From a marine bacterium AO1-C (GTDB lineage Bacteria; Bacteroidota; Bacteroidia; Cytophagales; Microscillaceae): a stretch of 64,000 bases of DNA. Numbering within the stretch: position 1 is the stretch's first letter; the number at the start of each line of letters is the position of its first letter. The notes beneath the pieces are model-generated. The model searched no databases. It worked only from the letters and a program-made list of their open reading frames with translations, and was not told the DNA's origin. Positions 15,491 through 29,727 of the stretch are shown piece after piece. The stretch lies in assembly GCA_001890965.1 (NCBI GenBank), contig MLAY01000008.1, positions 488,341-552,340 of the forward strand. Reading direction: 5' to 3'. The position numbers and the translations under genes are program-made.

Positions 15491-18400
15491 ATGGCCGATA
15501 AAAAACTCTTTGCCCTGTGTGTAGGCATCAATGAATATCCTGAAGGTGTAAGCAACCTGGCAGGTTGTATTACTGATGCTGAAAACTGGAAAAACTTTCT
15601 GGAAACCCACTATCAAAAATCCCTTTCTCCCGAAATACTTTTACTTACCAATGCTCAAGCTACCCGAGAGGGGTTCATAGACGCTTTTCGCAATCATTTG
15701 GGCCAGGCCAGAGATGGTGATACGGTTTTTCTTCATTATAGTGGACATGGCTCCCGAGAAAAAGCTCCTCCAGCTTATTTAAAGTTTTTTCCAGATGGTA
15801 TGAATGAGACCCTGGTACTGAGTGATAGCAGGGCTAAAGATGGCGAAGGTAATTATATAGGCCACGATTTAGCTGATAAAGAGCTAGGAAAACTTTTAGA
15901 AGAGGTAATTGCAGATAAACCCAACTTAAATCTCATAGTATCACTCGATTGTTGTCATTCAGGATCAGGTACCCGTGATGCAGCTGGCCTTTCTGCTTCT
16001 CGTCTTACAGGTGACCGTGCCGATGAAGCTCGCTCATTTGATACTTACATTCCTGGTATTTTTACAGGTGGTGAGGTAGTGCCTCCTTCTAGTAAACACA
16101 TCCTATTAGCTTCTTGCAACAAATATCAAAAGGCCTGGGAAACCAAAGAGAATACGGGGCTCTTTACTACTTCTGCATTGGCAATACTTGATAAGTATGG
16201 TGCACAAACAACTTTTGCCGACTTGTATACACGTACTCGCACCATTATGCGACAAACGACTAATATTCAAGATCCTCAATTAGAAGTACACGAAAAATAC
16301 AATGCAAATCAAGTTATTTTCACTGGCGGAACTCTGGAAGGAGCAGGACAGTACACCCGAAGAATTTACCAAATAGATAATACTTGGAAATTAGACTTTG
16401 GGGCAATTCATGGGATGCCTAATGATAAAACTATTGAGCTGGCTGTGTATGAAAATGCTGATGATTTACAACAGCAAAAATCTTTGGGAAATGCTAAATC
16501 TATAGGGGTAACAACAGATAAAACTACGCTCGAACTTGATTTTGAAGCTGATACCAATCAAGAATATATTGGAGAGTTTCTTACCCCTCCCACTACTCCC
16601 ATGAATGTATTCATTTATGGAGTAAAAGAAGGTCAGGAATTTATTCAAAAAACGTTCGAAGAACATCCAAGTCTAAATTTTACATTAACCATAGTAGATG
16701 ACCAAGATGGCTATACTTTCGATTCAAAATATATAGAAAAAGATAACCCTCATCCATATTATGGTGAAATCAAAATTATTGATCAGCAAGGCCAATTGAT
16801 AACCCCCAAAGCAGGCGATTATAATCTTGTTGCGTACTCTGATGGTTATTTCATATTGGATGAAAACAATCGCCTGATTCAAGGGTGTAAAAATGGTTAT
16901 GATGATGTTGGTGCAATCAAAATATTATTTCAAGCTCTAGACAAAATCGCCAACTGGGAAAATTTAACGGTACTTCAAAACAAAGCTCCTAAAATCAATC
17001 CAGACAAAATAGCGTTTAACCTTTATGTAGGAGAAGATGAAAAGCAAATTGAGGGAACAGAATTCACCACTTCTCTAGTAGAAGTAAATGATCCCACAGT
17101 ACCTTGGCCTAGTATTCCCTTTGAATTACGATGTAAAAACAACACTAATCAGGGGCTTCATATTTCACTGATATACCTAGATGATAATTACACTGTAGTA
17201 CCACTTTATAATGATTACATTGAATCTAAAACAGGAGAAACTACGCTCATCAGTGATGGATTCTATATACTAAGTAACAATAAAGCAGAAAGTGGTAATG
17301 TATATGATGAAGAGTTGGACGAATATCGTTTTAATCAAAGTAACATGATATTCAAGTTACTGGTAAGTACTGAACGTTTAGACGACTTTACCCTAGAACA
17401 AGAAGGAATTGATATAGGCCATATTGCTTACAATAGAGTATTGGCTTCTAGAGTTAAAGGTGGGATCACAAAACCTGTGAAAAACGATTGGTTTACCAAA
17501 ACAATTAATACATATACGATACGCCAACGTTCTAAGTTAAGTAAAAATAACTTAGAACTAGGAGAAACAAAACAACTGGCAATCAAAGGTAATGAACAAG
17601 TCTCCGCTAATGTAAAACTCAGTACCAGCAACCCTGGAAGTCGCAGTACCGACAAAACCTCCCTGATGACAAGTTTGCTTGAACAACAAGCGGGGAATTT
17701 GATCAACTTTGGCGGGGAACTGGGAGGCTCGAATATTTTGGAGATTAATGATATCCAAGGTGCCGATGAGCTTGCTGAAAATCCACTGGAAATCACCCTT
17801 AATGAAGAAGTTTCTGAGGATGAATTATTACTTCCTTTCACCTTTGATGGAGAACACATTCTCTCCATTGGCGAAAGCGAAACACAGGCAGACGGCAGCA
17901 CTAACATTGCCATTGATGAAGTTCCTGCCATAGAAGAAGGAAGCCGTAGTTTAGGCAAATCACTCAAGTTGGCTTTCTATAAAATTGCGCTCAAACGTCA
18001 CCCCGATAAGATTTACCAATTGGCTTGGGTAGAATATTTGAACACCCAGGATGAAGATGGTAACGAAGAAATAGATCGCCACCGAGATAATGATGAAGTG
18101 GCTGAAAAAGTAGCCAGTGCCAATAAGGTTTTGCTGTTGTTGCATGGCATTATTGGTGACACCGAAGACATGGCCATTGCCGTAAAAGATATAGCAGCTG
18201 AAAAAGGCTATGATTTGGTATTGAGCTTTGACTACGAAAACCTAAACTCTTCTATTGAAAAAGATATTTCCTGGTCTTTGAAAGACCAACTCGAACGCGT
18301 GGGCTTCAAAGCTGATGATGGCAAGGAATTGCACATTTTAGCCCAAGGCATGGGGTGTTTGGTAGCTCGTTGGATGGTGGAACGCAGGGGAGGCAATAAA

Positions 18401-18919
18401 TTTGTAGACCGGATGATTTTGGTAGGCCCACCCAATGCTGGCTCAGTCTTAGGAAACCTGGAATCTTACCGCAAAATGGCCACCATGGTATTAGGCGTAG
18501 TAGCCAATATAGCTTTGCCGTTTTTAGGTTGGGCTGGTGGCTTGCTCAAAGGAGTAAAAACTGCCTTAAAACAAGGGCAAAAGTTAACAACTACTCTGGC
18601 TGAAATGCACGAAAGCTCTACTTTTATTCGGGACTTGAACGATAGTGATGATCCAGGTGTGCCTTATGCCATTGTAGCAGGAGATGTTCGCAGTTATGAA
18701 CCAACCGATGGTAGTAACTTCTCTAAATTTCACGAAAAAATGTCAGCCAAGTTGGGCACATTTGTCAATGGAGGGGATGCCAACGATATGATTGTAGATT
18801 TTGCCTCTATGAAACGAGCTGGTAAAAACAGTCAGGTAGAAATTACCAAGGTAGTTTGTCATCATTTAAATTATTTTCACGAAGAAGCGAGCTTAGAGGC
18901 TATTCAAGGCCTTTTGTGA
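15491..18919 (+). CDS. Large multidomain protein: N-terminal caspase-like (peptidase C14) domain, ~600-aa central region, C-terminal alpha/beta-hydrolase-like domain with a degenerate nucleophile elbow
   Basis: Caspase His-Cys dyad motifs HYSGHGS and SLDCCHSGSG. The C-terminus has LLLLHGIIGDTEDM and AQGMGCLVA, where Gly sits at the usual GxSxG Ser position. Confidence 0.75.
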   Translation: MADKKLFALCVGINEYPEGVSNLAGCITDAENWKNFLETHYQKSLSPEILLLTNAQATREGFIDAFRNHLGQARDGDTVFLHYSGHGSREKAPPAYLKFFPDGMNETLVLSDSRAKDGEGNYIGHDLADKELGKLLEEVIADKPNLNLIVSLDCCHSGSGTRDAAGLSASRLTGDRADEARSFDTYIPGIFTGGEVVPPSSKHILLASCNKYQKAWETKENTGLFTTSALAILDKYGAQTTFADLYTRTRTIMRQTTNIQDPQLEVHEKYNANQVIFTGGTLEGAGQYTRRIYQIDNTWKLDFGAIHGMPNDKTIELAVYENADDLQQQKSLGNAKSIGVTTDKTTLELDFEADTNQEYIGEFLTPPTTPMNVFIYGVKEGQEFIQKTFEEHPSLNFTLTIVDDQDGYTFDSKYIEKDNPHPYYGEIKIIDQQGQLITPKAGDYNLVAYSDGYFILDENNRLIQGCKNGYDDVGAIKILFQALDKIANWENLTVLQNKAPKINPDKIAFNLYVGEDEKQIEGTEFTTSLVEVNDPTVPWPSIPFELRCKNNTNQGLHISLIYLDDNYTVVPLYNDYIESKTGETTLISDGFYILSNNKAESGNVYDEELDEYRFNQSNMIFKLLVSTERLDDFTLEQEGIDIGHIAYNRVLASRVKGGITKPVKNDWFTKTINTYTIRQRSKLSKNNLELGETKQLAIKGNEQVSANVKLSTSNPGSRSTDKTSLMTSLLEQQAGNLINFGGELGGSNILEINDIQGADELAENPLEITLNEEVSEDELLLPFTFDGEHILSIGESETQADGSTNIAIDEVPAIEEGSRSLGKSLKLAFYKIALKRHPDKIYQLAWVEYLNTQDEDGNEEIDRHRDNDEVAEKVASANKVLLLLHGIIGDTEDMAIAVKDIAAEKGYDLVLSFDYENLNSSIEKDISWSLKDQLERVGFKADDGKELHILAQGMGCLVARWMVERRGGNKFVDRMILVGPPNAGSVLGNLESYRKMATMVLGVVANIALPFLGWAGGLLKGVKTALKQGQKLTTTLAEMHESSTFIRDLNDSDDPGVPYAIVAGDVRSYEPTDGSNFSKFHEKMSAKLGTFVNGGDANDMIVDFASMKRAGKNSQVEITKVVCHHLNYFHEEASLEAIQGLL

Positions 18920-18948: not shown

Positions 18949-18990
18949 GAAAACGACAAATGATTTAAGAATTGTTTGTCGTTTTTATTT
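18949..18990 (+). terminator. Rho-independent terminator after the caspase-like gene
   Basis: aaacgacaaa-(13 nt)-tttgtcgttt followed by tttattttg. Confidence 0.6.
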
Positions 18991-19049: not shown

Positions 19050-20018
19050 ATGAACACCCCCATACGTATAGAGTTACCCACCATTTTTGGGATGAAAACA
19101 GTCAATGCTTATTTGTTTTTAGAACCCACACCTACCTTGATAGATTGCGGCGAACAGACCGATAAATCCTGGGATGCGTTACAAAAAGCATTGGCTGAGC
19201 ACAATCTGAAAATTCAGGATTTGGCAAGGGTGATTATTACCCACGCCCATGTAGATCATATTGGCATGGCAGGCAAAATCGCGGCTGAGAGTCCCAATAC
19301 CGAAATCTGGGTTTCCGAATTTGCCTACAACTGGGCAGTCAATCCCAAAGAAATGAACAATATTCGGCAAGAGGTTATGCAAGAATACATGCAGTTGTTT
19401 CCCCAATTTGTCAACTCCCCTTTTCAGCAAATGATGGTACAACTATACAAAACCGCTAGCTCAGCATGGGGCGAAATCCCTAAAGATCGCGTAAGAAGGT
19501 TTACGCTGGACGAAAAGCTTCGCTTAGGTAATCTGGATTGGGAGATTATCTATGCACCAGGGCATTGCAATCATCAAACCTGTTTTTACCAGCCCGAAAC
19601 CCGTCAAATGATCTCGGCAGACATGTTACTCGCTATTACCCCTTCTCCTGTAATAGACGTGACGCTCAAGCCCCCTTATAAAAGAGAGAAAAGCTTGCAT
19701 CAAATGATTGAATCACTCCATAAATTTGCCGCAATAGATATTGATCAGGTATACCCAGGACATTATGAGCCATTTCAAAACCATCGGGAACTAATCCAAA
19801 AACAATTGGATCGCATCATCATGCGCAAAAATCAATGCTTTGCTTTGATCAAATCCGGGACGGATGATTTTTTTGAACTTTTGACTCAGCTTTACGGGAA
19901 AAACTTTACCATTCCTGCCATTCCTATGCTGGTAGGTTATCTTGATTTGTTGACTGAAGAAAACCTAATTACAGTCAGTAAAACCGAACAAGGTCTGAAA
20001 TATCAAGTGCAGGAGTAA
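19050..20018 (+). CDS. MBL-fold metallo-hydrolase
   Basis: ITHAHVDHIGMAG (HxHxDH) with downstream His/Asp ligands. Confidence 0.75.
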   Translation: MNTPIRIELPTIFGMKTVNAYLFLEPTPTLIDCGEQTDKSWDALQKALAEHNLKIQDLARVIITHAHVDHIGMAGKIAAESPNTEIWVSEFAYNWAVNPKEMNNIRQEVMQEYMQLFPQFVNSPFQQMMVQLYKTASSAWGEIPKDRVRRFTLDEKLRLGNLDWEIIYAPGHCNHQTCFYQPETRQMISADMLLAITPSPVIDVTLKPPYKREKSLHQMIESLHKFAAIDIDQVYPGHYEPFQNHRELIQKQLDRIIMRKNQCFALIKSGTDDFFELLTQLYGKNFTIPAIPMLVGYLDLLTEENLITVSKTEQGLKYQVQE

Positions 20019-20105
20019 ATAGGTTAGGTATTGGGGTAAAGTTTATGTATTTTGGAAGTATCCCAACCCAAGATACCCATTCAAACTTACCCAATTATAT
20101 TTTAT

Positions 20106-21059
20106 ATGACTGATCAAATTAAAGACAAAATCCGTGGAGTTATTTTTGGCCAGGCTATTGGAGATGCCATTGGCCTTGGCACCGAATTTATGACTCAGGC
20201 AATGGTTAAGCATTATTACCCTGATGGCCTCACCGAGTATACCCAAATATTGCAAGACAAACATCGAAAACGCTGGAAACCAGGCGAATGGACAGACGAT
20301 ACCAATCAAATGTTGTGCATTTTGGATAGTATTTTAGCTACCAAAAGAGTAGATGTCAAAGATATTGCGCTCACTCTGGTAGACTGGGCCCACCATGATG
20401 GGCGTGGTTTAGGTCGTACGGTATATTCAGTGTTAGGATCTCCTATTTTTATGCAAAGCCCTCACGAAGCTGCCAAAAACTATTGGGAAAAGTCTAACCG
20501 ATATGCTGCCGCTAATGGAGCTGTCATGCGTACGTCGGTACTGGGCATTTGGGAATATAACAAGCCCGAAAAAATTAGAATCAATGCCACCAAAGTTTGT
20601 AAAATCACCCATTACGATCCTCGCTGTGTAGGTTCTTGTGTCATGGTTTGTTTGGTGATTAGTCACTTGCTACAAGGCAAAACTGATTTGGAGTTGGTTA
20701 GTAAATTATTGACTGAAGGTGATATTTTTGATCAACGTATTCGTCCTTTTTTACAAGAACATGTACGCCCTAATATAGCCGCTCTCAATTTGAGCGATCA
20801 GGAAAGCATTGGCTATACCCTCAAAGCCTTAGGAGCTGGTCTTTGGGCCTTGCAATATGCTATTTCGTTTGAATCAGGCATTTCTACTATTATTCATGAA
20901 GGAGGCGATGCCGATACCAATGCCTCAGTAGCAGGAGCTATTTTAGGAGCCCGGTTTGGGTATGAAGCTTTACCTATTCATTGGAAAGATAACCTACATC
21001 GCAAAGACTGGTTGATGGAACAAACAAATCAGCTTATTGCCCTGATGGAAGCTGCATAG
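20106..21059 (+). CDS. ADP-ribosylglycohydrolase family protein
   Basis: GVIFGQAIGDAIGLGTEF near the N-terminus and GGDADTNASVAGAILGARFG near the C-terminus. Start placed at the ATG at 20106 (MTDQIKDK). Confidence 0.8.
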   Translation: MTDQIKDKIRGVIFGQAIGDAIGLGTEFMTQAMVKHYYPDGLTEYTQILQDKHRKRWKPGEWTDDTNQMLCILDSILATKRVDVKDIALTLVDWAHHDGRGLGRTVYSVLGSPIFMQSPHEAAKNYWEKSNRYAAANGAVMRTSVLGIWEYNKPEKIRINATKVCKITHYDPRCVGSCVMVCLVISHLLQGKTDLELVSKLLTEGDIFDQRIRPFLQEHVRPNIAALNLSDQESIGYTLKALGAGLWALQYAISFESGISTIIHEGGDADTNASVAGAILGARFGYEALPIHWKDNLHRKDWLMEQTNQLIALMEAA

Positions 21060-21747
21060 GGACTATCTCACGATGGATATTATTGGTAAAATACACCGTT
21101 TCGCGGCTTTGCCGTTCTTCAAAGTAGCTTTGGTATTGCCAATCATAGTCTATCCGAGAATTGATCACGTCTCCGTAAACATTGTGCATCCCCATCACCA
21201 AATCGGTAATTTCGCGCACGGCAAACTGCCCACTTTGGCTACCAGTGATATAGTCACACAATTGATTATCACGAGCAAAATCCATCAATAACGGGCTGGC
21301 CGCTCTACGTACCATAAAACGTAGGCCACAAATTCGGGCCATTGGGAAATCGTTTACATCATCGAAACAACAAGCGATTTGGTAAGGCTCCAGATCGTTC
21401 ATTTCACAAAAGTGCTCAATGGCTCGGCTTTTATCGTGAATACGGGAATATACCGCATAAAAATGTTCTCTCTGGGCAAACTGAATGGCAGTGGGGTTAT
21501 TGGCCCCGGTAATAATGGCTACAGCCATTTGTTCCTCATCGTTTTTTCGCCAATAGCTATAGCGCATCATATTGGTACCCATAGAATCGGCTTCGGTAAA
21601 GGAGCTAGATACCCCTACTCCTTTAGCCCCCAGGCTAAAAACACCGTCCCAATCGAATACAAATGCTTTGATATCTATTAGTTTTTCGGCAATTTTTTCG
21701 GCTGCCAGCACAAATTCTCCCCCAAAAGATTCAAATTGTTTTTTCAC
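21034..21747 (-). CDS. HAD-superfamily hydrolase-like protein
   Basis: Motif I FVFDWDGVF near the N-terminus. The 3' end overlaps the convergent ADP-ribosylglycohydrolase gene by 26 nt. Confidence 0.4.
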   Translation of the reverse strand: MKKQFESFGGEFVLAAEKIAEKLIDIKAFVFDWDGVFSLGAKGVGVSSSFTEADSMGTNMMRYSYWRKNDEEQMAVAIITGANNPTAIQFAQREHFYAVYSRIHDKSRAIEHFCEMNDLEPYQIACCFDDVNDFPMARICGLRFMVRRAASPLLMDFARDNQLCDYITGSQSGQFAVREITDLVMGMHNVYGDVINSRIDYDWQYQSYFEERQSRETVYFTNNIHREIVPMQLPSGQ

Positions 21748-27782: not shown

Positions 27783-28391
27783 ATGAATCATTATCAACGC
27801 CTTGGCGTGACCAAGGAATCCACTCTGGAAGAAGTAGAACAAGCTTATCACAGTCGCCTTCAGGAATACAAAACACAAGCCGAGCAAGGAGTCATTATTG
27901 ACAAAGAAGCAGAAACTGCATTAGAAAAATCCTATCAGGTAATTACAAACTATATATTAGATGCCCAGAGGAAGAAAATTCCACAAGGAATAAAGTTCTT
28001 ATTAATGGTGATTGCAGGAGCGGTGATTGTACTCAGTCCCATTTTATTGGTTGATGTGTTTGATAATCCAGCATTTTTTGTACTGATTCCAGTGTTCTTT
28101 GTACTATTGATCTTATTAAATATAGTAATAAACACTCGTAGGCTTCGTAAAAATAATGGTGGTAAGCTATATCGCCCCAATACTACCGAAAACAGAAAAA
28201 AGAGTAGACAAAGTATTATTTGGATCGTAAGTATTTTGGCTGGTGTCTATTTTTTGGGCTACACATTGGGTGAAGAAACCATTGATAACACTTCAGATTA
28301 TGTAGAGCTAGCGATTGGTATACTTGCGGCATGTGGAGGTTTGTTTATGTTAGTGAAGGATTGGTTGATATATCGCAAAAACAACAATTAA
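27783..28391 (+). CDS. Membrane protein with a degenerate J-domain-like N-terminus (no HPD), paralog 1 of 3
   Basis: HYQRLGVTKESTLEEVEQAY...QEYKTQAEQG resembles a J-domain helix II/III with the HPD replaced. Transmembrane helices follow. Confidence 0.5.
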   Translation: MNHYQRLGVTKESTLEEVEQAYHSRLQEYKTQAEQGVIIDKEAETALEKSYQVITNYILDAQRKKIPQGIKFLLMVIAGAVIVLSPILLVDVFDNPAFFVLIPVFFVLLILLNIVINTRRLRKNNGGKLYRPNTTENRKKSRQSIIWIVSILAGVYFLGYTLGEETIDNTSDYVELAIGILAACGGLFMLVKDWLIYRKNNN

Positions 28392-28439
28392 TACAAGTAA
28401 TTACTTGTACACATCACATCGTAACTCCTATTACAATTT

Positions 28440-29237
28440 ATGACCTATTACCAGATATTAGAAGTAAGTGAACAGGCTAATCAGGAAGAAATCAAAGAAG
28501 CTTTTAAGAAATTAAGAATCAAATACGAAGCAGAGAATAACCTGCATCAGTTACAAAGATTGCGAGAGGCCTATCGAGCATTATTGCCTAAGCCCGAAGT
28601 CAAGAAAAATAAAGCAGGTTTCAATGCTTTGTTATTAACATTGGGAGTTGCTCTGGCCATACTTGTCCCTCATCTGTTAGTTATCTCATTTGATAATCCT
28701 CAGTTTTATTGGTTATGGTTTGTCTACATTGTGCTGATGATTACTTACTTGTTGGTATCCTCTATCATCAAGTTGCTACTTTTTGTGTTTAGTGGAGAGG
28801 TAAAGGGTTTTAGCAAAAGAACAAACATTACCCAGCGAGATAGATTGAATCGCAAACGTACCATTTCTGCTTTTCTACTAATAGCTCAAGTAATTCCCGT
28901 TACTGTCATTTTATGGAGCTTTGTACCCGATACCGACTTAGCCGCACTTGCCGGGGCAAGCATCGCATTTTATATAAGTATTGGCATTGCTTTGTATGAC
29001 CCTATCACTTCTATGATTGCCGCTCGCAGAGGCAAATCGGTCTCTAAAAAAGCTGGCCGTAAAGCATTAATATTAAGTATGGTTATTCTGGCATTTGTGT
29101 TCGGATATTTTGCTCAATATTTACCTGAAGAAATGCAGATTGGTGATCCACGAGTGGTCATCGCAGTCATCTTCAGCTTCCTGACCTGCTCTATTATTAG
29201 TTTGATGCTAGAGTTATGGAAAATGGCCAAAAGATAA
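28440..29237 (+). CDS. Membrane protein with a degenerate J-domain-like N-terminus (no HPD), paralog 2 of 3
   Basis: TYYQILEVSEQANQEEIKEAFKKLRIKYEAENN...REAYRALL, followed by several transmembrane helices. Confidence 0.5.
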   Translation: MTYYQILEVSEQANQEEIKEAFKKLRIKYEAENNLHQLQRLREAYRALLPKPEVKKNKAGFNALLLTLGVALAILVPHLLVISFDNPQFYWLWFVYIVLMITYLLVSSIIKLLLFVFSGEVKGFSKRTNITQRDRLNRKRTISAFLLIAQVIPVTVILWSFVPDTDLAALAGASIAFYISIGIALYDPITSMIAARRGKSVSKKAGRKALILSMVILAFVFGYFAQYLPEEMQIGDPRVVIAVIFSFLTCSIISLMLELWKMAKR

Positions 29238-29256
29238 ACCTAAATAAACCCTCTAT

Positions 29257-29727
29257 ATGACTTATTACGAAACATTAGGCGTAAGCCCCAAAGCTACTTT
29301 AGAAGAAATTACAAAGGCTTACCAAACACTCACTAAAAAATTTCAGGAATTTGGTGAATCATCAAGCTCTGATAAATTTATACAGCTTAATAAAGCCTAC
29401 GAAATATTGTCGAACGACAATACTCGCAAAACTTATGATATACACATTGATGATCCTAATAATGAGAAAAAGGTGGGAGAACGAGTAAAAAAAACTCGGA
29501 AAAAAAGTGGTACTTATGACAATCGCAATGTTATCAGCATTTTGATTTTATTGTCTATCATACTTGGCATCTTCTTATCTTTTGCATTTGCTTCTTCTTA
29601 TTTCCTGTTACTTCCAGTAATTACTGCCCTTATTGGCATCATTAGTCTTTGGCGCTCTGGTAAAGTAGCTAAAGATAAGGTGAGCAGAAAAAGCATTATT
29701 AGGGGAATTATCGATTTGCTTGATTGA
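29257..29727 (+). CDS. Membrane protein with a degenerate J-domain-like N-terminus (no HPD), paralog 3 of 3
   Basis: TYYETLGVSPKATLEEITKAYQTLTKKFQEFGES...NKAYEILSNDNTRKTYD is clearly J-like but QEF replaces the HPD. Two transmembrane helices follow. Confidence 0.55.
   Translation: MTYYETLGVSPKATLEEITKAYQTLTKKFQEFGESSSSDKFIQLNKAYEILSNDNTRKTYDIHIDDPNNEKKVGERVKKTRKKSGTYDNRNVISILILLSIILGIFLSFAFASSYFLLLPVITALIGIISLWRSGKVAKDKVSRKSIIRGIIDLLD

Follow-up and report, generated by a model that had tools for sequence, protein, structure and literature searches.

Conflict modules that couple a caspase to an alpha/beta-hydrolase as protease and effector were predicted by Kaur, Burroughs, Iyer & Aravind 2020 (PMC7159879), and in these systems the genes of the two proteins are reported to be obligate neighbours. 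One such pair, LcCaspase-LcHydrolase of Lysobacter capsici, was tested in a preprint by Evans et al. 2025 (bioRxiv 10.1101/2025.11.14.688446): LcCaspase cuts LcHydrolase at two R|G sites, and the hydrolase then becomes toxic. Conflict systems built on nSTAND1 NTPases were described by Kaur et al. 2021 (PMC8195603), and the accessible part of that paper does not mention a caspase-lipase fusion as a partner. The gene reported here, from the marine bacterium AO1-C, encodes such a fusion and belongs to what we call the caspase-lipase family. How does it compare with the published modules? By analogy, the family also couples a caspase-like Cys protease to a lipase-like alpha/beta-hydrolase, and its members have attached or adjacent STAND/WD40 sensors as the modules of Kaur 2020 and Evans 2025 do. 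Like LcHydrolase, it may have two sites placed to license the hydrolase, in this case two conserved Arg residues each followed by a small residue, which are candidate sites pointed out by conservation. The family differs from LcCaspase-LcHydrolase in being one fused chain of ~1100 aa with an Ig-like spacer of ~590 aa, and its candidate sites precede the hydrolase core, in a pro-region, whereas the sites of LcHydrolase are inside the hydrolase. The AO1-C copy differs further, as it has neither the hydrolase nucleophile nor a sensor gene. With the nucleophile absent, the AO1-C protein does not provide the catalytically competent hydrolase toxin of the published modules.

Gene layout, caspase domain and middle region

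The complete gene including the stop codon lies at 15491..18919 of the window, i.e. the whole 64-kb stretch of DNA that was analysed; this and all features below are on the + strand. According to the ORF list and its translation, it is an uninterrupted ORF with an ATG start and encodes a protein of 1142 aa, with a caspase domain, an Ig-like middle and a pseudo-lipase domain. Full-length homologues of the same architecture have 1070-1150 aa. The AF2 model of the protein has a mean pLDDT of 80. The motifs YSGHGS, DCCHSG, LLLLHG and AQGMG are at aa 83-88, 153-158, 881-886 and 951-955, respectively. Upstream there is a divergent intergenic region of 227 nt, where a scan for sigma-70 promoters gave background level, and the sigma-70 consensus is ill-suited to Bacteroidota. 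A terminator-like hairpin (18949..18986; 17-bp stem, 4-nt loop, T-run) follows 30 nt past the stop; it is a consensus match only, and the region has just as many terminator-like sites as shuffled sequence is expected to have. The gene is monocistronic in the AO1-C genome.

The N-terminal domain (aa 1-280, 15491..16330) is a Peptidase C14 domain of the metacaspase/orthocaspase type. Pfam Peptidase_C14 (PF00656) matches aa 7-266 with E 2.6e-22 (80.1 bits against a cutoff of 21.4), and the PADLOC caspase model matches with E 2.5e-30. Foldseek with the AF2 model matched metacaspase-9 and GSU0716 at E ~1e-12, and metacaspase structures at E 7e-13 with probability 1.00. The preliminary description had proposed an intact C14 His-Cys dyad, and this is borne out: His86 (15746-15748, in YSGHG) and Cys155 (15953-15955, in DCCHSG) are invariant in 118/118 relatives. 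The protein has the C14 fold, the dyad and the DxCHSG motif in common with metacaspases and orthocaspases (Yca1 4f6o, AtMC9 9n3e, TbMCA2 4afv, Geobacter GSU0716 3bij). It probably also has the Cys-x-x-Asp, Ser and Asp residues of their basic-P1 pocket: by motif positions and a HMMER alignment to Yca1, C26, D29, S84 and D153 take the positions of C92, D95, S156 and D211 in the S1 pocket of TbMCA2 (PMC4357240). Unlike in these enzymes, no p10-type C-terminal region can be recognised in its sequence, and a long Ig-like region and then the hydrolase domain follow behind C14. In the loop past the catalytic Cys, R162, R171 and R181 are conserved in 114-118 of the 118 relatives; pLDDT in this loop is <50 at aa 158-165 only. 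The caspase-like protease is probably cytoplasmic, latent and Arg/Lys-specific, the P1 specificity being a prediction.

What lies between the two domains? For the middle region of ~590 aa (aa 281-870, 16331..18100), no match was found among Pfam, NCBIfam and PADLOC. The earlier statement that a middle of ~600 aa has no recognisable motif thus holds for sequence families, but it does not hold for the structure model, in which several Ig-like beta-sandwiches occur along with a small alpha/beta domain, and aa 473-493 form a long helix, nor for two near-invariant Arg residues found between variable flanking residues. One is R718 (R718-S719, 17642..17647), which is Arg in 116/118 relatives, with S, G, D, N or A as the next residue, and is in a disordered loop (aa 715-721, pLDDT <50). 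The other, R819 (R819-S820, 17945..17950), is also within those 600 aa, just before the hydrolase core; it is Arg in 113/118 relatives and Lys in the remaining 5, with Ser next in 110/118, and its segment (aa 814-836) has pLDDT <50 as well. Directly behind it there is a conserved Lys-rich, hydrophobic helix, SLGKxLKLxFFK. Both residues are upstream of the hydrolase core, and both are kept in P0128, an effector encoded as a split protein (A-R-G for R718, Q-R-S for R819). Column counts and pLDDT make R718 and R819 candidate sites of protease processing, where the chain may be cleaved.

The hydrolase domain and its lost nucleophile

The C-terminal domain (aa 871-1142, 18101..18916) is a lipase-like alpha/beta-hydrolase domain (DUF7379) that is catalytically disabled. 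Pfam DUF7379 (PF24096) matches aa 881-1050 with 38.9 bits against a cutoff of 33, and there are weak Pfam matches to Palm_thioest and DUF676. Foldseek with the AF2 model matched lipases of Burkholderia, Pseudomonas and Proteus (E 7e-9 to 1e-7), and the domain profile matched lipases with E 2e-5 to 1e-3, the family motif ILAHSMGGLvsRw..GTPNaGS being aligned with the lipase motif LIGHSQGGLTSRY..GTPHRGS. The fold of the AO1-C domain is common to the family I lipases (Burkholderia cepacia/glumae, Pseudomonas, Proteus; PDB 1ys1, 1tah, 4hs9; Foldseek E 7e-9), which share with the caspase-lipase family the elbow and the downstream motifs xHSxGGLxSRy ... GTPxxGS. Their HG oxyanion motif and their Asp and His positions match the AO1-C domain too: H885-G886 is present, and the triad residues D1099 (18785-18787) and H1125 (18863-18865) are retained. 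Unlike family I lipases, the AO1-C domain has Gly in place of the nucleophile Ser, is intracellular and is fused to a protease; its likeness to lipases is in sequence and fold only.

The elbow reads A951-Q-G953-M-G-C956 (18341-18358), while that of the family is A-H-S-M-G-G. Gly953 (18347-18349) aligns with the Ser of GHSQG in the Burkholderia, Pseudomonas and Proteus lipases, which is the catalytic Ser87 of those enzymes. Ser at this position is found in 112/118 full-length relatives. Q-G at the elbow (A-Q-G-M-G-C/S) occurs among the 118 only in the AO1-C protein and P0001-P0005, and these six Ser-less proteins form one monophyletic clade, to which Ser953Gly together with His952Gln is restricted. 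Where the clade alone departs from a residue that is otherwise conserved to >=90%, the changes cluster at the active site (positions 952, 953, 956, 980 and 1101). At position 956, for example, 112/118 have Gly, and just the six Ser-less proteins have Cys (four) or Ser (two). P0004 and P0005 have His1125Tyr on top of the Ser loss. The locus L041 represents an independent Ser-to-Gly case.

Is the disabled domain decaying? The dN/dS of the AO1-C gene against L001 is 0.05-0.07 in all three regions, and that of the hydrolase region in two comparisons with L009 is 0.06-0.10, all values being approximate because dS is near saturation. Hydrolase identity within the clade is 0.69-0.91, at least equal to caspase identity, and intact ORFs of 1135-1152 aa were found in 7/7 sampled clade lineages (AO1-C, L001, L009, L085, L086, L087, and P0002 as a separate protein). 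The codon of Gly953 is GGC, GGA or GGT across six independent assemblies, and this synonymous variation means that the Gly is not a sequencing error; together with the low dN/dS, it rules out an origin from sequencing error or a pseudogene. The dead lipase domain is not decaying but under strong purifying selection. One might still take the C-terminal domain, if not the whole gene, for a decaying relic that has no function, as the catalytic Ser is gone, in two relatives the His too, and the usual partner is missing from the 64-kb window. With intact ORFs in all seven lineages, dN/dS of ~0.06, a hydrolase domain conserved as much as the caspase domain, and synonymous turnover of the Gly953 codon, this is hardly credible. 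Another explanation is that the domain remains an active hydrolase through a relocated nucleophile, with Cys956 (Ser956 in P0004 and P0005) as the candidate. This residue arose three residues past the lost Ser, exactly in the Ser-less clade, and the domain is strongly conserved with D1099, H1125 and the HG motif kept in the AO1-C protein. However, the Ser956-bearing P0004 and P0005 are the very proteins that have lost the triad His, and L041 keeps Gly-Gly and has also lost the Gly of HG. By the general geometry of alpha/beta-hydrolases, a residue at +3 from the nucleophile would belong to the first helix C turn and be placed below the apex of the elbow. We consider a relocated nucleophile improbable. 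The C-terminal domain is most likely a non-catalytic module by now, which may serve in lipid, membrane or substrate binding, or in auto-inhibition. The preliminary description, which had read the C-terminus as a lipase-type fold turned pseudo-enzyme or binding module by Gly at the nucleophile position, agrees with the family columns, the dN/dS of 0.05-0.10, the conservation of the domain and the loss of the triad His in two clade members.

Family partners and the AO1-C locus

The caspase-lipase family was found in at least 538 species genomes of many phyla, among them Bacteroidota, Planctomycetota, Proteobacteria, Cyanobacteria, Acidobacteriota and others. Its members are annotated as 'caspase family protein' or DUF7379 only, and a search for literature on DUF7379 gave no result. 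In PADLOC-DB v2 the AO1-C protein matched the generic 'caspase' model PDLC02987 and no system-specific model, and a PADLOC scan of the neighbours and family partners gave no catalogued system. Does the family have a constant partner? When the neighbours at 80 loci were clustered by all-vs-all BLAST, only caspase/CHAT/nSTAND1 proteins were conserved. An nSTAND1 gene is within 10 kb at 47/80 loci, usually downstream and on the same strand, a feature shared with the nSTAND1 conflict systems as presented in the accessible part of PMC8195603. The proportion depends strongly on lineage: an nSTAND1 NTPase gene is <=10 kb away at 41/51 non-Bacteroidota loci (27/30 of those with complete flanks) versus 3/26 Bacteroidota loci, where 23/26 members are solitary. 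The partner nSTAND1 often has its own N-terminal caspase or CHAT domain and a C-terminal WD40, or a separately encoded TPR. At one locus (L081) the effector itself is split, the operon being C14 / pro-region+DUF7379 / CHAT / nSTAND1 / TPR, and P0128 is this split effector. Of five match loci examined from a search with the hydrolase domain only, P0128 was the one real split-operon variant; P0135, P0138 and P0131 were rejected as stand-alone DUF7379 proteins, as they resemble frameshift fragments of the full-length gene. The P0131 locus has no Peptidase_C14 gene despite the fragment-like look of the protein.

That the family often adjoins caspase/CHAT-nSTAND1-WD40/TPR genes supports the link to prokaryotic cell-death and conflict systems that had been suggested from the sequence. 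The accompanying claim of a stand-alone gene without partner genes is correct for the 64-kb window, which has no nSTAND1 or other STAND-like neighbour and no other ORF >857 aa; here AO1-C departs from the nSTAND1 systems in the available part of PMC8195603, having no STAND gene of any kind. The claim fails as a property of the family, since being solitary is characteristic of the Bacteroidota lineage, and the Ser-less orthologue at L086 keeps a C14-nSTAND1 gene downstream in the same locus. The family is large, conserved and uncharacterised, and the AO1-C gene is a solitary offshoot of it.

In AO1-C the gene is surrounded by housekeeping genes, between polyprenyl synthetase/rhomboid and an MBL/ADP-ribosylglycohydrolase block, and this synteny is kept across relatives from 85% down to 56% identity. 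Such a locus is unlike a typical mobile defence island. The next gene downstream (19050..20018, +) encodes an MBL-fold hydrolase, and caspase-associated MBL effectors have been published (10.1101/2025.11.14.688446). Might it have replaced the lipase as the caspase-activated effector? It is next on the same strand at 5/6 clade loci and just 7 nt past the stop in L085 and L087. But it is a widespread single-domain Bacteroidota orthologue (801 matches, many of ~50% identity), the MBL+ADP-ribosylglycohydrolase+KdsC-like block occurs without a caspase gene at L088, as does MBL among housekeeping genes at L089, none is found at other family loci (the MBL cluster is at 3/81 loci), and the terminator-like hairpin is between both genes in AO1-C. 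The caspase-less MBL loci and the absence from other family loci largely refute this idea, which we regard as very unlikely. The ADP-ribosylglycohydrolase neighbour was rejected as a partner, too, being part of that independent block and absent in L087. A further reading is that the AO1-C protein is no conflict or cell-death effector but was domesticated into a protease with a housekeeping or regulatory role, such as protein processing in response to stress, and that the dead lipase docks it to substrates or membranes. Vertical retention at one syntenic locus, the usual solitude of Bacteroidota members, a GC content in line with the surroundings and the lack of a PADLOC system match are consistent with it; the tight coupling of the family to STAND NTPases elsewhere, the STAND partner kept at L086 and the absence of a positive sign of any housekeeping substrate argue against it. 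We think that domestication is possible, if on the unlikely side.

Proposed mechanism and its meaning

The best explanation, to which we give a probability of about 55%, is that the protein is an effector of the caspase / Ig-like spacer / lipase family, a latent protease with a non-catalytic lipase module in the AO1-C lineage. For the family as a whole, the caspase-lipase protein may serve nSTAND1-NTPase systems of conflict or cell death as their executioner or effector. In this model, a STAND sensor with its own caspase or CHAT domain would become activated; the effector would then be cut after conserved Arg residues, R162/R171/R181 behind the catalytic Cys and R718 and R819 before the hydrolase; and this processing would free or unlock the active caspase and the lipase-type hydrolase. 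The cascade logic is inferred, and the STAND-coupled model may not hold for Bacteroidota because most members there are solitary. Within the Microscillaceae-like clade, Gly has taken the place of the nucleophile Ser of the lipase, and Gln that of the His next to it; caspase proteolysis would be the sole enzymatic output of the AO1-C lineage. As the gene is monocistronic and has no adjacent sensor, activation would be by autoprocessing or by a factor encoded elsewhere. A more speculative scenario, which we hold with little confidence, is that in the Ser-less clade a former death effector was turned into a pseudo-lipase sensor or regulator, whose dead ligand-binding domain gates the fused caspase, e.g. 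via a lipid or membrane-damage signal. If this is true, the protein would combine sensor and protease in a single self-contained chain and would no longer depend on a STAND partner, a bacterial parallel to the pseudoenzyme switches from effector to regulator that are known in eukaryotic cell death.

Coupling of caspase and hydrolase is already known, and such modules were shown to be protease-licensed bacterial death effectors only recently, in the 2025 preprint; the Ser-less solitary caspase-lipase protein is a real, new variant. The AO1-C locus leads to a much larger family of fused proteins, and the way in which this family is paired with caspase/CHAT-nSTAND1 genes is reminiscent of initiator and executioner. 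What is more, the Ser-less clade is a natural experiment, in which lipase chemistry was removed, the domain is strongly selected and the sensor is gone in most members. A comparison of members with and without the Ser could tell the catalytic from the structural roles of the effector domain, and the clade could test whether bacterial caspases alone suffice as the killing or signalling activity.

Domain architecture of the protein and its family

The gene is an uninterrupted ORF of 1142 aa with an ATG start (15491..18919, forward strand), and the four motifs quoted in the preliminary description are all found at their places in its translation: YSGHGS at aa 83, DCCHSG at aa 153, LLLLHG at aa 881 and AQGMG at aa 951. 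The Pfam match over aa 7-266 is Peptidase_C14 (E 2.6e-22), and the His and Cys of the dyad are invariant in an alignment of 118 full-length family members, which bears out the caspase-like N-terminus. DUF7379 (PF24096) scores 38.9 bits over aa 881-1050 (cutoff 33), and weak Pfam matches to palmitoyl-thioesterase and to DUF676, a 'putative serine esterase', run across the same stretch. The middle had been described as lacking a recognisable motif, and the Pfam search of aa ~270-870 indeed gave no credible match. For the whole protein, the NCBIfam scan gave a sub-threshold caspase model only and the PADLOC scan a generic caspase model only. The GC content of the window is about 39%, and the composition does not break at the caspase gene.

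An AlphaFold2 model was built from 67 family sequences (mean pLDDT 80) and compared with the PDB by Foldseek. Its N-terminus resembles metacaspases and Geobacter GSU0716 (E about 1e-12), and its C-terminus resembles the family-I bacterial lipases of B. cepacia (1ys1), P. glumae (1tah) and Proteus (4hs9), with E from 7e-9 to 5e-7. In the profile of the C-terminal domain, the family pattern 'ILAHSMGGLvsRw...GTPNaGS' aligns to the lipase pattern 'LIGHSQGGLTSRY...GTPHRGS'. The DUF7379 match, the Foldseek matches and this alignment together support the suspected lipase-type alpha/beta-hydrolase fold. Since the alignment puts the family elbow on the lipase GHSQG, whose Ser is the nucleophile (Ser87) of these family-I lipases, residue 953 is the nucleophile position.

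How widespread is this architecture? Among 5.8 billion proteins searched there were more than 530 matches; the best 120 come from many phyla, are nearly all 1070-1150 aa long and have the same C14 and DUF7379 arrangement. Of the species-representative genomes scanned, at least 538 encode a relative, the closest being a Microscillaceae MAG (L001) with 84% identity. Our literature search for DUF7379 found no paper mentioning it.

Loss of the serine and constraint on the domain

In the 118-member alignment the hydrolase elbow reads A/V-H-S-M-G-G, with Ser in 112 members; Asp1099 is invariant, and His1125 is kept in all 112 Ser-containing members. The elbow A-Q-G-M-G-C/S is limited to the window protein and P0001-P0005, which form a single clade whose sister, P0007, retains the Ser. 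In P0004 and P0005 the triad His is changed to Tyr too. At positions that are elsewhere at least 90% conserved, the Ser-less clade has the changes H952Q, S953G, G956C/S, T980P and A1101I/V, which concentrate around the hydrolase active site. The second Gly of the family G-G after the elbow (window 18356..18358) is Cys956, or Ser in P0004 and P0005, in this clade only. An independent Ser-to-Gly loss was found in a Planctomycetaceae MAG (L041, 2204-5509), where the elbow is GHGLGG and the HG oxyanion motif has become HS.

Is the Ser-less domain still maintained? When the window gene is compared with L001, all three regions (caspase, middle and hydrolase) give a dN/dS of 0.05-0.07, and in the hydrolase region it is 0.10 between the window and another relative, L009, and 0.06 between L001 and L009; all these values are approximate, with dS near saturation. 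Members of the Ser-less clade conserve the hydrolase domain at least as well as the caspase domain (mean difference +0.05), the corresponding hydrolase-caspase difference being -0.04 +/- 0.07 in Ser-containing pairs of comparable divergence. Against the closest relative that retains the Ser, identity is only 50% in the hydrolase domain, compared with 62% in the caspase domain. The codon for Gly953 is GGC, GGA or GGT in different Ser-less members, which rules out a sequencing error as its source.

Low dN/dS, domain conservation and the variable codon thus exclude decay as well as error, and the idea that the gene or its C-terminal domain is a relic is hardly credible when the hydrolase domain of this clade is no less conserved than the caspase domain. 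Another explanation is that Cys956 serves as a relocated nucleophile and keeps the hydrolase active; this is improbable, being weakened by P0004 and P0005, which have no triad His. The elbow alignment, the clade, dN/dS and domain conservation instead make a predicted pseudo-enzyme or binding module, as first proposed from the Gly, the best-supported reading of the C-terminal domain.

Gene neighbourhoods and STAND partners

The genes for a polyprenyl synthetase and a rhomboid protease lie upstream of the caspase gene and diverge from it. Its stop codon is followed by a hairpin of 17 bp and a T-run, and downstream on the same strand are genes for an MBL-fold hydrolase and an ADP-ribosylglycohydrolase (19050..21059), followed by a KdsC-like HAD phosphatase on the reverse strand (21034..21747). 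The 64-kb window has no further large ORF and no gene of STAND type. The claim that the gene stands alone without partners therefore holds for the window, but not for the family. When ORFs flanking the gene at 80 genome loci were clustered, the sole recurrent neighbours were large proteins with a caspase or CHAT N-terminus and an nSTAND1 NTPase (defined by Kaur et al. 2021, PMC8195603), often with WD40 repeats at the end. In 47 of the 80 loci there is an nSTAND1 gene no more than 10 kb away. Outside Bacteroidota this holds for 41/51 loci (27/30 of those with at least 5 kb on both sides), and in 30 of the 41 the nSTAND1 gene is downstream on the same strand; in Bacteroidota it holds for 3/26 (3/14). 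The family protein may also be split: in operon L081 (8287-17202) a C14 protein (569 aa), a pro-region with DUF7379 (506 aa), a CHAT, an nSTAND1 and a TPR protein are encoded by co-directional, abutting genes. The C14 protein aligns with aa 5-577 of the window protein, and the DUF7379 protein with aa ~630-1142.

Then is the solitary state tied to the loss of Ser? The Ser-less orthologue P0003, on a metagenome contig (L086, 13487-19493), occupies the same syntenic locus, and downstream of it a pentapeptide-repeat gene, a 677-aa C14-nSTAND1 gene, an LRR gene and small ORFs replace the MBL and ADP-ribosylglycohydrolase genes. That the window gene is solitary is thus a lineage condition; a Ser-less protein can still coexist with a STAND partner, and the slot 3' of the caspase gene is variable.

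Caspase-MBL modules with the MBL protein as caspase-licensed effector are described in a preprint (10.1101/2025.11.14.688446). The same role for the downstream MBL-fold hydrolase here is very improbable, and we rejected it: its orthologues are widespread across Bacteroidota, the MBL/ADP-ribosylglycohydrolase/KdsC-like block is present without a caspase gene in the comparison locus L088, the MBL gene lies alone amid housekeeping genes in L089, and it is absent from the other family loci examined. The three-gene block is itself conserved, and the MBL orthologues give a weak Pfam match to Anti-Pycsar Apyc1-like proteins. Stable synteny with housekeeping genes and the solitary state across Bacteroidota would also suit a domesticated protease with a role outside conflict, which we consider rather unlikely and which is compatible with our main reading.

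Elsewhere in the window, an 857-aa ORF (30714..33287, reverse strand) encodes a bacterial homologue of the Major Vault Protein (Pfam MVP_shoulder E 5e-31, Vault_3 E 2.7e-9, Band_7 weak). It adjoins a 308-aa ORF without annotation (29754..30680), and directly adjoining the vault-protein gene are three tandem paralogous small proteins (27783..29727, forward strand) with similar MxxYQxLGV… N-termini and hydrophobic C-terminal halves; Pfam assigns DnaJ to the second and third and not to the first.

Candidate processing sites and a proposed mechanism

The family keeps C26, D29, S84 and D153 where TbMCA2 has C92, D95, S156 and D211 in its S1 pocket (PMC4357240), which suggests Arg/Lys specificity. 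Which residues might be cut? Several Arg residues are near-invariant with variable flanks. R162, R171 and R181 (Arg in 114-118 of 118, next residue variable) lie in the loop after the catalytic Cys, where pLDDT falls below 50 only at aa 158-165. R718 (116/118, followed by S, G, D, N or A) is in a low-confidence loop of the middle region. R819 (Arg in 113 and Lys in 5, followed by Ser in 110/118) is in a low-confidence loop ahead of the hydrolase, and a conserved Lys-rich, hydrophobic helix comes directly after it. The effector protein of the split operon keeps both R718 and R819, as A-R-G and Q-R-S. The arrangement of these putative cleavage sites is similar to the two R|G cuts by which the L. 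capsici alpha/beta-hydrolase becomes a toxin (10.1101/2025.11.14.688446).

These features give a scenario in which a STAND sensor that has a caspase or CHAT domain of its own would activate the fused caspase-lipase executioner, which would be cut after conserved Arg residues, so that the protease is freed in active form together with a lipase-type effector. In the Ser-less clade the scaffold would be unchanged and the lipase domain catalytically dead yet constrained, most likely binding lipid, membrane or substrate, or auto-inhibiting the protease; the caspase would be the sole remaining enzymatic output. In the window genome no sensor gene is adjacent to the caspase gene. We put the probability of this overall reading, an executioner family with a constrained pseudo-lipase in the window clade, at roughly 55%, with higher confidence in the domain and pseudoenzyme parts and lower confidence in the cascade and cleavage steps.

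Kaur et al. 2020 (PMC7159879) predicted that a caspase pairs with an alpha/beta-hydrolase, and Evans et al. 2025 (10.1101/2025.11.14.688446) tested such a pairing. In the window protein, by contrast, one chain joins both domains through a long Ig-like spacer, the candidate sites precede the core of the hydrolase, and the hydrolase nucleophile is missing; in addition, the window has no sensor gene. The original observation is real and its interpretation supported, with refinements. The general caspase, hydrolase and STAND logic is already in the literature. The caspase-lipase family has many members and no experimental work on it yet, and the clade with the conserved pseudo-lipase offers a useful contrast made by nature.
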